From: Escherichia phage vB_EcoM_NBG2
Length of the DNA: 64,000 nucleotides
Strand: one strand, 5' to 3'
Sequence record: NC_054925.1
Shown: in pieces, positions 34,635 through 38,584 of the stretch
How positions within the stretch are numbered: the first letter of the stretch is position 1
Layout: every line of letters starts with the position of its first letter
Notes under the pieces: model-generated
Databases searched by the model: none
Seen by the model: the letters and a program-made list of their open reading frames with translations, nothing else
Told to the model about the DNA's origin: nothing
Made by a program: the position numbers and the translations under genes

Positions 34635-34824
34635 AAGTTTTCCATGGTAAAGGCAGTTTAGTTTTCTTTACTGTTAGTTCAACATCAGGATTCTTTTCTC
34701 TTAATTTAAGGCATTCCTCCCAAGCCCTAATTTCACTAGTGAATATACAAAATTGCCCATTACTAGTACCAACTAAACCACTGTTTACAATAACAATAGC
34801 CCAAGTTTCATGATGCCAAGCCAT
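34627..34824 (-). CDS. hypothetical protein
   Basis: 65-aa ORF, overlaps neighbours by a few nt. Confidence 0.5.
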   Translation of the reverse strand: MAWHHETWAIVIVNSGLVGTSNGQFCIFTSEIRAWEECLKLREKNPDVELTVKKTKLPLPWKTYE

Positions 34825-35729
34825 TAAAAGTCACCATGGTTAACTTGCCAGCATTCAACACCGATACGACGCCACATCTCAACGACTTGGTTTCGGTCAT
34901 CAATGGCTAATTTCACATCAAAATGTGGTGCGATGTGTTTCCAGAAAATTTCTTCTTTAACTACATCATCTTTACGAGTATCACCTTGTTTGCGTTGGAT
35001 ATGCAAATTAAACGGAATATCGTTTTGTAAAAGCCACTCACGTGTCATAACATAATATTTTAACTTAGCATTTTCGGTGCCAGATTCACGTCCGCTTACA
35101 GTAATAATCTCATAACCCGAGTGATGAAGCATCTTCAGATATTGTACAACCATTTCGTTTGGAGTATCGGTTGATAATTTATCTAATTCGTATGGGCCAC
35201 GAGATGTATGAATAGCTAGTGTTCCATCAAGGTCAAAGATTGCAGCTTTTGGTTTACCAGGAGTCCCTTTGTATACCGGAAGACCGAGATACTCTCGCAT
35301 GCTTTTATACATTGAGCGTAAAACATCAATCGGTACTGCTTTAGTTCCACGTTTTGAGTTACGTTTAACCAATTCAGTCCAAGGAACATCAAACACTTTA
35401 TATTCAACTTTCCAGCCGTATTCTTTGGCAAAAGTTTCCCATGCTAGGCGACGTTCGGGATTCAAGTTAGTGTCTGAAATAATTACTCCCTTGACAGAAT
35501 CACCGCCATACAAAATACTCTTCGCGGTATCAAACTGCATACCAGTTACGATGCCTTCTTTCTTTTTGGTATACTTGTACTCGTCACGTTCTTCATGACC
35601 CATGATGGATTGACGATAATCATCACGATTGATATTATAAAATCCAGGATTTTTAGCAATAAATTCACGAGCCCAAGTGCTCTTACCTGAACCAGGACAG
35701 CCAATAGTCAAAATAATCTTTTTCATCAT
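34824..35729 (-). CDS. pseT: polynucleotide 5'-kinase / 3'-phosphatase
   Basis: 301 aa; P-loop GCPGSGKST and HAD-type phosphatase motif DLDGTLA; sequence recognised as T4 Pnk. Confidence 0.97.
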
Positions 35730-36028
35730 TTAATTCCTAAGAAAACTTCAAGAATACGAACATTATGCTCACGCCGCTCTTTATATAATTCAGCTGTTGA
35801 TTGATTCACCGATTTGCTCTGAACATTAGATGAAATAAATTTTATCATGTGATTTTTAAGCTGATACATATCAAGCCCACGGGCTTTTGCTTCTTTTCGT
35901 AGAGCTTTACCAGCGTCATCTAAAGCTTTAGCATGTTCAATGTCTTCGCTAATGCTTGATACATTTTCACGGCATACGTCAATGTAACGGTCTGAGCATT
36001 CAATATAACGTTCTAATAGAGTTTTCAT
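35726..36028 (-). CDS. hypothetical protein
   Basis: 100-aa ORF, ATGA-coupled to pseT. Confidence 0.55.
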
Positions 36029-36255
36029 TTATTTTTCTCAACCAATGATTGAATATAATCATGCAGGTCTTTAGATGCTTTGCCCCACTTATTTTGGTAT
36101 TCATTTTTGAGATTAGCACGTGATTGAGCTAATAAAACATCATTAGTTGGAGGTAAAGATTCTAATCGTTGAATCTGGCGTCCATAAATCATTGCAGCCA
36201 TCTCGGATTCATAAATCAATCCTTTGAGATGTTCAAATTGATGCCATGAAATCAT
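36025..36255 (-). CDS. hypothetical protein
   Basis: 76-aa ORF. Confidence 0.5.
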   Translation of the reverse strand: MISWHQFEHLKGLIYESEMAAMIYGRQIQRLESLPPTNDVLLAQSRANLKNEYQNKWGKASKDLHDYIQSLVEKNK

Positions 36256-36551
36256 TTACACTTATCCTCTTTTAACTCTTGACGATAATAACATATCATA
36301 GTTTTTTGGTCATGTACATATCGTTTTACATCATTAAGCCAAATACGAAATTCCTGGGAATCTTCAAATGGCATACCGACCCAAGCTTTACCATCAATAA
36401 CTTTAACTTGCCAAGATAGTTTAGCTTCATCATATGACTTTATTTGTACAGGCCAATTAGGATGAACTGTTTCTTTCTTTACTTCTAGAGGCTTTGTCGA
36501 ACAACCAACTAGAAGACCAATAGATAATATTACTGCTGATAGTTTAATCAT
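36252..36551 (-). CDS. outer-membrane spanin lipoprotein (Rz1 equivalent, pseT.2-like)
   Basis: Signal peptide with lipobox LLVGC, 99 aa, directly downstream of a TM/coiled-coil partner. Confidence 0.7.
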   Translation of the reverse strand: MIKLSAVILSIGLLVGCSTKPLEVKKETVHPNWPVQIKSYDEAKLSWQVKVIDGKAWVGMPFEDSQEFRIWLNDVKRYVHDQKTMICYYRQELKEDKCK

Positions 36552-36901
36552 TTAGAAAGGTCCTGGATGTCTTCTGCGAACTTGTTGAAGGAGTTGTTGA
36601 TTTGTTTTTCAACCAATCCTGGCTTATGAGCCACCACATCCGCCTTCTTTGCATCTTTGCGCAGTTTTTCATTTTCACGCTCAATAGCAGCAATTGCCTC
36701 ACGATTTTTATTATTCATCGCATCAATATAATTATACTGAATTCGCAAATTATCTAATGCTAAAGCGTTTTCATTGGCTGTTTTTGTAATTTCAGTAACC
36801 GATGTTTCTAATCTTTCTACCTTATTTTTTAAAATAATAGATGTTCCGCCAAATGCTATTACAAGTAATAGCAATCCAGCTGTAAAATTACTTACATGCA
36901 T
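36548..36901 (-). CDS. inner-membrane spanin (Rz equivalent, pseT.3-like)
   Basis: N-terminal TM helix (FTAGLLLLVIAFGGTSIIL) followed by coiled-coil, 117 aa. Confidence 0.7.
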   Translation of the reverse strand: MHVSNFTAGLLLLVIAFGGTSIILKNKVERLETSVTEITKTANENALALDNLRIQYNYIDAMNNKNREAIAAIERENEKLRKDAKKADVVAHKPGLVEKQINNSFNKFAEDIQDLSK

Positions 36902-37398
36902 AAAGTTTTAATAACCTCTACAATATCGTCTTGAGAAAGACCGTTAATTAAAATATGATGTTCAGCTGGAGATTTAGAAATTTTAAAGCATGCCTCAACA
37001 TCTTCTGCCATATCCGATGCGCTACGATTTGGATTACTAATTCCAAGACGATGTTTTCCCGTCAAAGGATTAACGATGATGTAGCATTTACAGCTATTAA
37101 TGTGAACATTAGGTTGAGTCTGATTAATGAACACATCACAATCGTATTTCGCAAGCTGATTTTCTAAAAAGACTTTCATCTCCTCAACCGCATCAGGAAG
37201 CATATCACGGGCTTGCTCAAGACGACGATTTCGATATTCTTTAATGGTCGTTTTCCGTTTGACTTGCTTAGCTAAATCTTTCTTAAGATCGGTGATATAT
37301 CCAACTCGACGATTTCCTTTAAATACAGAAATCCCATCTGTAGTATCACCGTATGCTTCAACGACCATCTCAGTAGTAATAAGCTGCAAATCCATCAT
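36892..37398 (-). CDS. alc: Alc, host transcription shutoff protein
   Basis: 168 aa, position between the spanins and rnlA as in T4. Confidence 0.75.
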   Translation of the reverse strand: MMDLQLITTEMVVEAYGDTTDGISVFKGNRRVGYITDLKKDLAKQVKRKTTIKEYRNRRLEQARDMLPDAVEEMKVFLENQLAKYDCDVFINQTQPNVHINSCKCYIIVNPLTGKHRLGISNPNRSASDMAEDVEACFKISKSPAEHHILINGLSQDDIVEVIKTLCM

Positions 37399-37402
37399 AA
37401 AG

Positions 37403-37456
37403 TCCTCATGTTATGTCAGTAAGACTACTATAACACAACACGAGGGACTTGTAAAC
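37403..37456 (-). promoter_or_regulatory. early promoter with stem-loop (PeSL-like cassette), copy B
   Basis: Minus GTTTAC, 18 nt, TATAGT; 52 of 54 nt identical to copy A at 21448..21501. Confidence 0.65.
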
Positions 37457-37459
37457 AGC

Positions 37460-38584
37460 TTAGTATCCTTCTGGGATAAATTTTTTATAATTTTTCAAAA
37501 AATTCTGTTCGATTTCACACATGACCTTCTCTTGACTATCATACCCTTGGTAGAGGCTCATGATGATACCGAACAGATGTTCCATTCCAGCACCTTTAGC
37601 AACGCCTTGCGCTTCCATCGCGTAAGTCTTTCTATCTTTACCGCAATGCTTATTGTGACAGTCAAGAACTAAAAACAGAGCTCGGTCTAAGTACTTCAGA
37701 TAAGTCGTTTCAAATGCTTCAATTTTTCTATATGAGTATTCATCATCAGCGTACATTGCTTTAAGATCATCTGATGCACCATCAATAATAGTCTTAAACA
37801 ATTTTTCTGGATTATCTAACGAACTTTTTGTACTATGAAGAGATACGTACCAGTCAGACTTAATTTTAAAATGAGAACCATCTTTCATCACAGCAACATA
37901 GCCTTCAATGTTTTCTGCATTTTTAGCTTCTTCAACCCATTTAGGACTATCAATTTCGTATCGTTCAACTAAATATGGACGAAGAGCAGCATCTTTATAA
38001 ATATCATCATATGAAATGTATTCGCCTGTTTCATTTTCACGAATATTCAATAAAATGATTTTCATCTCTTGATAAGCAAGAACGATTCTATTCGTCGGAG
38101 CAACGAATTCAAAGTTAGCAGTAAATCCATCTTCAGCTAATTCTTTAAGTCTGTCACGCAACTGGTGATGATTAATGTTCATCAAAATTCCATTAGCCAT
38201 TAAAGCCTGCTCAGATTTGATTGAACCCTTTGATTTGAACAGAATTTCATCACCATCTAAATAAGTTGATACCAAAGACCCGTCTTCTTTTGTTAGAATG
38301 TAATCAACATCATTTAAATCGATATTCATCGTGAATGGATTTTCATTCAAGTTAAAAAACTTTTCCATAGGACGAGAGGCAATTCTTACTGGTTTTTCTC
38401 CATCCATTTCAAACATGATTCCACGACATTCTAGTGCGTCTGGAAGTAACCAATCAGAATAAGATGCATAATTATATGAGAAAATTCTGTAAGTTCTTCC
38501 AGATGCACTTACATCATCCGAGTAAAAAAACTTACGCTGTGAATCCTTACATAGTTCCATTAAATTGTTAAAAAGTTCTTGCAT
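37460..38584 (-). CDS. rnlA: RNA ligase 1 (Rnl1)
   Basis: 374 aa from ATG ([13 protein letters not shown]...); sequence recognised as T4 Rnl1; ORF-track N-terminal extension discarded. Confidence 0.95.

Follow-up and report, generated by a model that had tools for sequence, protein, structure and literature searches.

A T4-type early-gene row with RNA-repair, alc and spanin genes in Escherichia phage vB_EcoM_NBG2

Genes between rnlA and pseT

We analysed a stretch of 64,000 nucleotides of the Escherichia phage vB_EcoM_NBG2 genome (NC_054925.1), referred to here as the window, in which the interval 34824-38584 carries on its minus strand, in this order, rnlA, alc, pseT.3, pseT.2, pseT.1, an extra reading frame of 100 residues, and pseT. 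In the original prediction, alc and the pair of spanin genes were bracketed by the RNA-repair genes pseT and rnlA, and this arrangement was confirmed for every gene that it named; its gene list was incomplete, in that pseT.1 (36025-36255) and the 100-residue frame (35726-36028) were omitted. The interval is almost certainly the orthologue of the T4 early-gene row rnlA (63)-alc-pseT.3-pseT.2-pseT.1-pseT in a T4-like (Tequatrovirus) phage. Nucleotide comparison shows the window to be colinear with 101,293-163,616 of T4. The region 34000-39500 is 97% identical to that of phages IME340 and PP01, with 492 phage records covering 80% or more of this region, and the gene order agrees with the way T4 and PP01 are annotated. 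Identities to the T4 proteins are 99% for Rnl1, 99% for Alc, 98% for PseT.3, 99% for PseT.2, 84% for Pnkp, and 100% over 74 aligned residues for PseT.1. The T4 cluster itself (NC_000866, 134,002-137,464) shares genes, order, strand, and overlapping junctions with the NBG2 row, with 98-100% identity in all but one of the six proteins; the NBG2 phage differs in having a 295 bp insertion with the 100-residue frame between pseT.1 and pseT, and a Pnkp with a diverged phosphatase patch. Gene identities, motifs, junctions, and conserved synteny are demonstrated for this block. No structured RNA was matched in Rfam at gathering thresholds when the whole window was scanned.

The rnlA gene (gene 63; 37460-38584, minus strand) encodes an RNA ligase 1 of 374 residues, 369 of which are identical to T4 Rnl1; this enzyme would also catalyse tail-fibre attachment. 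The product matches PDB 2C5U over its full length (1.8e-253) and contains the Pfam domains RNA_lig_T4_1 and T4_Rnl1_C, the latter covered at positions 1-122 of 122 (9e-40), such that the all-helical C-terminal domain specific to Rnl1 is present. The nucleotidyltransferase motifs are kept at T4 numbering, with K99-E-D-G in motif I (TKEDG), E227-G-Y-V in motif IV (IEGYVA), and K240-x-K242 in motif V (HFKIKS), and the five substitutions relative to T4 (R141Q, V181I, T199A, I215V, and D335E) all lie outside these three motifs. The mechanically called reading frame extends to a GTG at 38620; the T4-equivalent ATG at 38584, which the original prediction had used as its end coordinate, is located 6 nt downstream of AAAGAGGA.

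The neighbouring alc gene (36892-37398, minus strand; T4-equivalent start 37395) codes for the inhibitor of transcription on cytosine-containing DNA, with 165 of 167 residues identical to T4 Alc and a full-length match to Pfam ALC PF17527 (1-177 of 177, 1.4e-92). In the spacer between rnlA and alc, a consensus scan identified a sigma-70-type promoter-like site (37427-37455, minus strand) with TTTACA and TATAGT elements 17 nt apart and a TG extension, matching the consensus at 10 of 12 positions, and this is a candidate promoter. Downstream, alc and pseT.3 overlap by 10 nt, pseT.3 and pseT.2 by an ATGA, and further junctions of the ATGA or TAATG type continue as far as cd.5. A scan of the coding (minus) strand from 34 to 39 kb gave neither an exact TATAAATA, which would mark a late promoter, nor a match to the MotA-box pattern used for middle promoters, and a dedicated late promoter for the spanins was dropped. 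Promoter and timing assignments in this row are read from consensus matches and are putative.

The spanin pair and its distance from other lysis genes

The pseT.3 gene (36548-36901, minus strand) encodes a predicted i-spanin, the inner-membrane subunit, of 117 residues, of which 115 are identical to T4 PseT.3, and it matches the Rz-like spanin family phrog_739 (6e-38). A hydrophobic segment at residues 6-24 (FTAGLLLLVIAFGGTSIIL; mean KD 2.24) constitutes a single N-terminal transmembrane domain, and the protein has no cysteines. Pfam returns weak matches of coiled-coil type, and periplasmic helices are probable given the 98% identity to T4 PseT.3 and the description of that protein (PMC6139136). 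The i-spanin is matched in 926 phage records. The following gene, pseT.2 (36252-36551, minus strand), encodes the predicted o-spanin, the outer-membrane lipoprotein subunit, with 98 of 99 residues identical to T4 PseT.2 and a match to phrog_812 (3.5e-43). Its lipobox is L14-V15-G16-C17, followed by S18-T19, with no Asp at +2 and hence in keeping with outer-membrane sorting, and its cysteines are at positions 17, 87, and 98. The original prediction had staked its spanin assignment on a lipobox and a transmembrane segment, and both are present in the pair. In T4, pseT.3 and pseT.2 complement lambda Rz/Rz1 amber mutants, and Cys87 and Cys98 of the o-spanin are both essential (PMC6139136).

The original prediction also described the spanin genes as remote from holin gene t, and as accompanied by no endolysin gene in the window. 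The t gene (60444-61100, plus strand) encodes a product identical to T4 T at 218 of 218 positions (phrog_860 holin, 1.6e-107), and is located 23.5 kb from the spanins on the opposite strand. Searching the window by tblastn with the T4 lysozyme e gave chance-level matches only (best E = 3.4), in agreement with the predicted absence of an endolysin gene. On the T4 map e lies near 66.5 kb, outside the colinear interval 101,293-163,616. We considered gp25 (13810-14205), which bears the old T4 label '15k lysozyme', as an endolysin and rejected it, as gp25 is a baseplate wedge protein and not a lysis endolysin, and it therefore does not contradict the statement on endolysins. A contiguous lambda-type holin-endolysin-spanin cassette is not present, with t distant and on the other strand, no e in the window, and the 34-39 kb region lacking an exact late-promoter sequence on the strand of the spanins. 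The T4 spanins likewise lie apart from t and e, and this dispersed layout is already in print (Kongari et al. 2018, PMC6139136, Fig. 8 legend).

Relative to lambda Rz/Rz1, the architecture is shared in principle, with a type II inner-membrane protein and an outer-membrane lipoprotein, although no family relationship was detected, the NBG2 proteins matching phrog_739 and phrog_812 and no Pfam spanin family. The NBG2 genes are also 'separated', with a 4 nt overlap, rather than embedded, and are located outside any lysis cassette; the i-spanin lacks cysteine, and the o-spanin has two cysteines expected to be essential from the T4 work.

The pseT phosphatase patch and the adjoining variable slot

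The pseT gene (34824-35729, minus strand; T4-equivalent start 35726) encodes a polynucleotide 5'-kinase/3'-phosphatase with 252 of 301 residues identical to T4 Pnkp (84%), matching the solved T4 structure 1LTQ (1e-171) and the Pfam families HAD_PNKP (full length, 1-143 of 143; 3.7e-56) and AAA_33 (3e-23). The N-terminal P-loop kinase domain has GCPGSGKST (GxxGxGKS) together with K15, S16, D35, R38, D85, and R126, residues whose essentiality is established by mutagenesis of T4 Pnkp. In the C-terminal domain, which we scored as a HAD-type 3'-phosphatase by DxDGT together with R176, R213, D254, D277, and D278, all of these are found, the relevant segments being FDLDGT, SRGPY, VSGRES, RKDDV, and AIDDR, and D165, D167, R176, and R213 are retained, as are both the KDD and the IDDR motif.

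The differences from T4 are concentrated in a 276 bp mosaic patch within the phosphatase domain (34990-35265, minus strand; about residues 154-246), where nucleotide identity to T4 is 52-65% as opposed to mostly 83-98% in flanking pseT. At the protein level 53 of 95 patch residues are identical (56%), leaving 42 of 95 aligned positions different, compared with 150 of 153 identical for residues 1-153 and 51 of 55 for those beyond the patch, so about 95% identity on its two sides. This allele is rare: of the 579 phage records that matched, only 35 cover 80% or more of it, and the alleles that come next in similarity reach only 77-89% identity. Phages PP01 and IME340 (NC_054930 and NC_054904) are 96-97% identical to the NBG2 phage in nucleotide sequence over the whole block, from which they differ by point differences; PP01 has the same patch allele and also an ORF between pseT.1 and pseT, of 106 residues rather than 100 owing to a short indel.

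Between the o-spanin gene and pseT, the NBG2 phage has two small reading frames. One is pseT.1 (36025-36255, minus strand), a conserved ORF of 76 residues belonging to phrog_2347, a family with no assigned function, and identical to T4 PseT.1 at 74 of 74 aligned residues. The other is the 100-residue frame absent from T4 (35726-36028, minus strand; phrog_2364), which corresponds to an insertion of 295 bp (35727-36021) between pseT.1 and pseT with no T4 counterpart. It is predicted to form a four-helix bundle (AF2 model, pLDDT 93.4), and has 39 homologues, among which the named ones and those on long contigs (about 165-187 kb) are from T4-like phages. Searches for its function gave no Pfam match, a PHROG family without assigned function, and no functionally named protein among the 39 homologues; a Foldseek search with the model gave no PDB match under E = 0.4, and in BFVD matched only two uncharacterised T4-like phage proteins. 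Among the T4-like phages compared, this slot holds from 1 to 5 small ORFs.

Gene order, RNA repair, and alternative readings

In T4, the tRNA-Lys that is cut by the Stp-activated anticodon nuclease PrrC is healed by Pnk and sealed by Rnl1 (PMC3014915; also PMC12409363), and without Pnkp the phage does not grow on hosts that carry prr (PrrC; PMC3014915). The counter-defence role that the original prediction assigned to the two repair enzymes is established biology, and its gene identifications, down to the assignment of the inner and the outer spanin, are upheld by the sequence, domain, and motif tests. By analogy with the T4 literature, enzyme activities, restriction phenotype, spanin function, and expression timing in the NBG2 phage would probably be those of T4: Rnl1 would reseal the anticodon loop so that translation of phage proteins goes on, Alc would halt host transcription on cytosine-containing DNA, and the N-terminal helix of PseT.3 would anchor this protein in the inner membrane, with PseT.2 as a lipoprotein of the outer membrane. 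A tblastn search of the window for stp, the PrrC trigger, gave chance-level matches only; by synteny with T4, stp should be located just past the window end, at a distance of about 1.5-2 kb. The same healing-and-sealing logic is seen in bacterial RNA repair (Clostridium thermocellum Pnkp; Pnkp1, PDB 4XRP), and Pnkp1 matches the NBG2 pseT product over its full length (6.5e-40). In the C. thermocellum enzyme, 3' healing is carried out by a metallophosphoesterase domain and not by a HAD/DxDxT domain (PMC2190708), whereas the NBG2 enzyme is of the T4 type.

The annotations of the Tegunavirus phiR1-RT, the Dhakavirus AnYang, and one Klebsiella T4-like phage show the same backbone, nrdB-denA-rnlA-alc-i-spanin-o-spanin-[1 to 5 small ORFs]-pseT, and the bracketing is therefore inherited synteny in an early-gene row and not a new module. 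The position of the repair genes around the spanins and alc is an inherited gene order in a dense same-strand row, not a functional module, and to say that they flank these genes is descriptive only; there is no functional link between RNA repair and either alc or the spanins. The recurrence of this order in T4-like phages from three or more further lineages, and the tightly overlapping frames, which suggest polycistronic and translationally coupled expression, could be taken to mean that the whole row, from rnlA through alc, the spanins, pseT.1, and the extra ORF to pseT, is a single co-regulated module for counter-defence or host takeover whose members cooperate beyond Pnkp and Rnl1. We consider this very improbable, since Alc and the spanins have well-defined and unrelated functions (T4 annotation; PMC6139136), the promoter-like site divides rnlA from the remaining genes, the slot beside pseT varies freely in the manner of plastic accessory loci rather than of a fixed module, and long syntenic rows are general in T4-like genomes, as the colinearity of the whole window illustrates.

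Another alternative denies that pseT.3 and pseT.2 work together as spanins, for example because they are decayed copies and another locus supplies the function. Its sole point in favour is that the two genes lie unusually far from t and e; with the lipobox and the transmembrane segment intact, Cys87 and Cys98 in place, 98-99% identity to experimentally tested T4 proteins, and the breadth of i-spanin matches, the sequence effectively refutes it, and we regard decay as vanishingly improbable. The replaced phosphatase segment could make Pnkp functionally different, in substrate range, in oligomerisation, or through escape from a host factor targeting T4-type Pnkp, and the sharpness of the patch in an otherwise similar gene and the rarity of its allele speak for such a change. 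Against it, every essential phosphatase residue checked is kept, the HAD_PNKP match is full length, and patchwork recombination occurs commonly among T-even lineages and does not call for selection as an explanation, such that a functional difference is unlikely; the retained catalytic residues point to a 3'-healing activity probably equivalent to that of T4. It is likewise unlikely that the slot is an accessory hot spot with host-takeover or counter-defence cargo and that the rare adjoining Pnkp segment reflects selection in a tRNA-cleavage conflict rather than neutral mosaicism.

The T4-type block is already described, and the arrangement found here is real but ordinary, a textbook T4 arrangement. 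As a control it is useful, in that calls and coordinates made from raw sequence in the original prediction were accurate. Its meaning beyond correct annotation is slight: the NBG2 phage has both members of the T4-type tRNA healing-and-sealing pair intact, and a spanin pair that looks functional at its canonical dispersed position. Two features, the 100-residue ORF and the chimeric phosphatase domain of the rare pseT allele, might bear on the revived interest in bacterial defences that target tRNA, such as PrrC, RloC, and PARIS.

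Gene row and probable expression

The original prediction placed the RNA-repair genes pseT and rnlA, encoding polynucleotide 5'-kinase/3'-phosphatase (Pnkp) and RNA ligase 1 (Rnl1), on either side of alc and the spanin genes. A gene row built from an ORF listing, the PP01 and T4 annotations and family scans confirmed this observation, with the outer coordinates 34824 and 38584 corresponding exactly to the stop codon of pseT and the ATG of rnlA. Every gene of the block is on the minus strand, in the order denA (38637-39071), rnlA (37460-38584), alc (36892-37398), pseT.3 (i-spanin, 36548-36901), pseT.2 (o-spanin, 36252-36551), pseT.1 (36025-36255), an extra ORF (35726-36028), pseT (34824-35729), and cd.5 and onward below 34824. 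Using megablast, the 34000-39500 segment matched 891 phage records, with the Tequatroviruses IME340, GEP001 and PP01 as best matches (96-97% identity across the full 5.5 kb), and comparison by blastn with three T4 segments showed the whole 64-kb window to be colinear with T4 101,293-163,616.

From alc to cd.5 all junctions overlap or abut, by 10 nt at alc/pseT.3 and then in order as ATGA, ATGA, ATGA, ATGA(TG), and TAATG. The 61-bp rnlA-alc spacer contains a consensus match to a sigma-70-type site (TTTACA, 17 nt, TATAGT, with a TG extension), the only well-scoring and sensibly placed one on the coding strand. The 34-39 kb interval of that strand has neither an exact copy of the late-promoter octamer TATAAATA nor a match to the MotA-box pattern searched. 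We infer from these features a single early or delayed-early polycistronic unit. Early synthesis of the spanins would be harmless; in established spanin biology, intact peptidoglycan restrains the complex up to the point at which holin and endolysin come into play. An early unit agrees with the description of Stp, Pnk and Rnl1 as delayed-early in a review (PMC3014915). Immediately before the ribosome-binding site of rnlA, in the denA-rnlA spacer, a consensus scan picked out a small hairpin that contains GC and leads into a T-rich tract (38617-38631, minus strand). This site may serve as a weak terminator or as a structure for translational control, and hairpin-type sites in this region do not clearly outnumber the shuffled expectation.

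RNA-repair enzymes and a mosaic patch in pseT

Both repair enzymes have the features of their T4 counterparts, and the interpretation of the pair as a tRNA-repair system is supported. Rnl1 is identical to T4 Rnl1 at 369 of 374 positions, matches structure 2C5U (1.8e-253), combines the nucleotidyltransferase domain with the C-terminal domain specific to Rnl1, and keeps the motifs K99-E-D-G, E227-G-Y-V and K240-x-K242. Pnkp is more divergent (252/301 identical), although it matches the solved T4 Pnkp structure 1LTQ (1e-171) and has the Pfam domains AAA_33 and HAD_PNKP. The residues checked, which are essential according to the T4 Pnkp mutagenesis literature, are all kept, both on the kinase side (P-loop GCPGSGKST, D35, R38, D85 and R126) and on the phosphatase side (D165 and D167 in FDLDGT, R176, R213, and the RKDD and AIDDR motifs). 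Alc gives a full-length match to PF17527 (1.4e-92) and is identical to T4 Alc at 165 of 167 positions. The second T4 RNA ligase gene, rnlB (RNA ligase 2), is also in the window (6630-7631, minus strand, 98% identical to T4's), and was not mentioned in the original prediction.

The divergence of Pnkp includes a sharply bounded patch in the phosphatase domain (about 34990-35265, minus strand), where nucleotide identity to T4 is 52-65%, compared with mostly 83-98% in flanking pseT; amino-acid identity is 53/95 (56%) in the patch, and 150/153 and 51/55 (about 95%) in the flanks. This allele is rare, with 35 of 579 matching phage records covering at least 80% of it, and the next-closest alleles, those of AV114 and of Mosigvirus type, are just 77-89% identical. 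Since the checked catalytic residues are kept, we read it as ordinary T-even recombinational mosaicism, and Pnkp function is probably unchanged.

Lysis genes, and departures from T4

The spanin intervals and the inner and outer assignments proved correct. PseT.3 (115/117 identical to T4) has a single strongly hydrophobic stretch (residues 6-24) and is free of cysteine, and PseT.2 (98/99 identical) has the lipobox L-V-G-C17, so the pair withstands the lipobox and transmembrane check. Cys17 is followed by Ser-Thr, and PseT.2 is therefore without an inner-membrane retention signal. The two genes overlap by ATGA and have the 'separated' architecture. PseT.2 also has Cys87 and Cys98, both of which are essential in the T4 pair, which complements lambda Rz-am Rz1-am (Kongari et al. 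2018, PMC6139136).

Holin gene t is distant from the spanin genes as predicted, at 60444-61100 (plus strand), encoding a protein identical to T4 T (218/218), with asiA following as in T4. The predicted lack of an endolysin gene also holds, in that tblastn with T4 lysozyme gave only chance-level matches in the window (E of at least 3.4); T4 e lies at ~66.5 kb on the T4 map, outside the syntenic interval. The lysis-inhibition accessory gene rIII is at 31093-31338 (100% identical to T4's). No match to stp, encoding the 26-aa PrrC activator, was found within the window; its T4 position is 165.5 kb, ~2 kb beyond the window end.

Several departures from T4 lie elsewhere. A 175-aa ORF absent from T4 (33566-34093, minus strand), hypothetical in the PP01 annotation and matching phrog_3710, is located between cd.2 and cd.3. 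The nrdB gene is one uninterrupted 392-aa ORF (39075-40253, minus strand) and so lacks the group I intron that carries I-TevIII in T4. Two further T4 genes, nrdB.1 and mobE (a homing endonuclease gene), are missing too (40253-40309), and there is no counterpart of the T4 stretches that include segD and segG (alignment gaps at ~5241-5302 and 48328-48364). The td region (41889-45006, minus strand) aligns continuously to the T4 td interval, which holds a group I intron and I-TevI, yet an Rfam scan of the window at gathering threshold returned no group I introns and no other families. Between td and frd, a stretch of about 400 bp lacks a T4 counterpart and holds a 119-aa GTG-start ORF (45049-45408, minus strand). 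The distal tail-fibre region (56541-60419, plus strand) fails to align with T4, and where T4 has the gp38 assembly chaperone, ORF 59634-60413 instead encodes an adhesin rich in glycine (phrog_2056, tail fiber protein / host specificity), which is probably of T2/T6 type.

Gene order and the variable slot

Relative to T4, a 295-bp insertion (35727-36021) codes for the extra 100-aa protein between pseT.1 and pseT. This ORF is common in other Tequatroviruses: by megablast, 455 of 653 matching records, T6, AR1 and PP01 among them, cover at least 80% of a 701-bp query spanning the insertion, and its named homologues and long contigs (~165-187 kb) are T4-like phages. No functional name was found among 39 protein-cluster homologues, nor a Pfam family; AlphaFold2 modelled it with confidence as a four-helix bundle (pLDDT 93.4), for which there were no informative structural neighbours.

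The slot between o-spanin and pseT is hypervariable in T4-like phages and the flanking backbone is conserved. It holds one to five small unannotated ORFs: one in T4 and in AnYang (Dhakavirus), two in the window and in a Klebsiella T4-like phage, and five in Yersinia phage phiR1-RT (Tegunavirus), the intervals being 36025-36028..35726 in the window and 4727-6394, 4385-5082 and 4776-5111 in the compared loci L006, L007 and L008. The annotations of phiR1-RT, AnYang and the Klebsiella phage share the order nrdB-denA-rnlA-alc-i-spanin-o-spanin-[small ORFs]-pseT, which is therefore an old synteny. Nothing connects alc and the spanins to RNA repair, and the simplest reading of the bracketing is an inherited order inside a long early-gene row; the arrangement, dispersed lysis genes included, is textbook T4 biology already in print.
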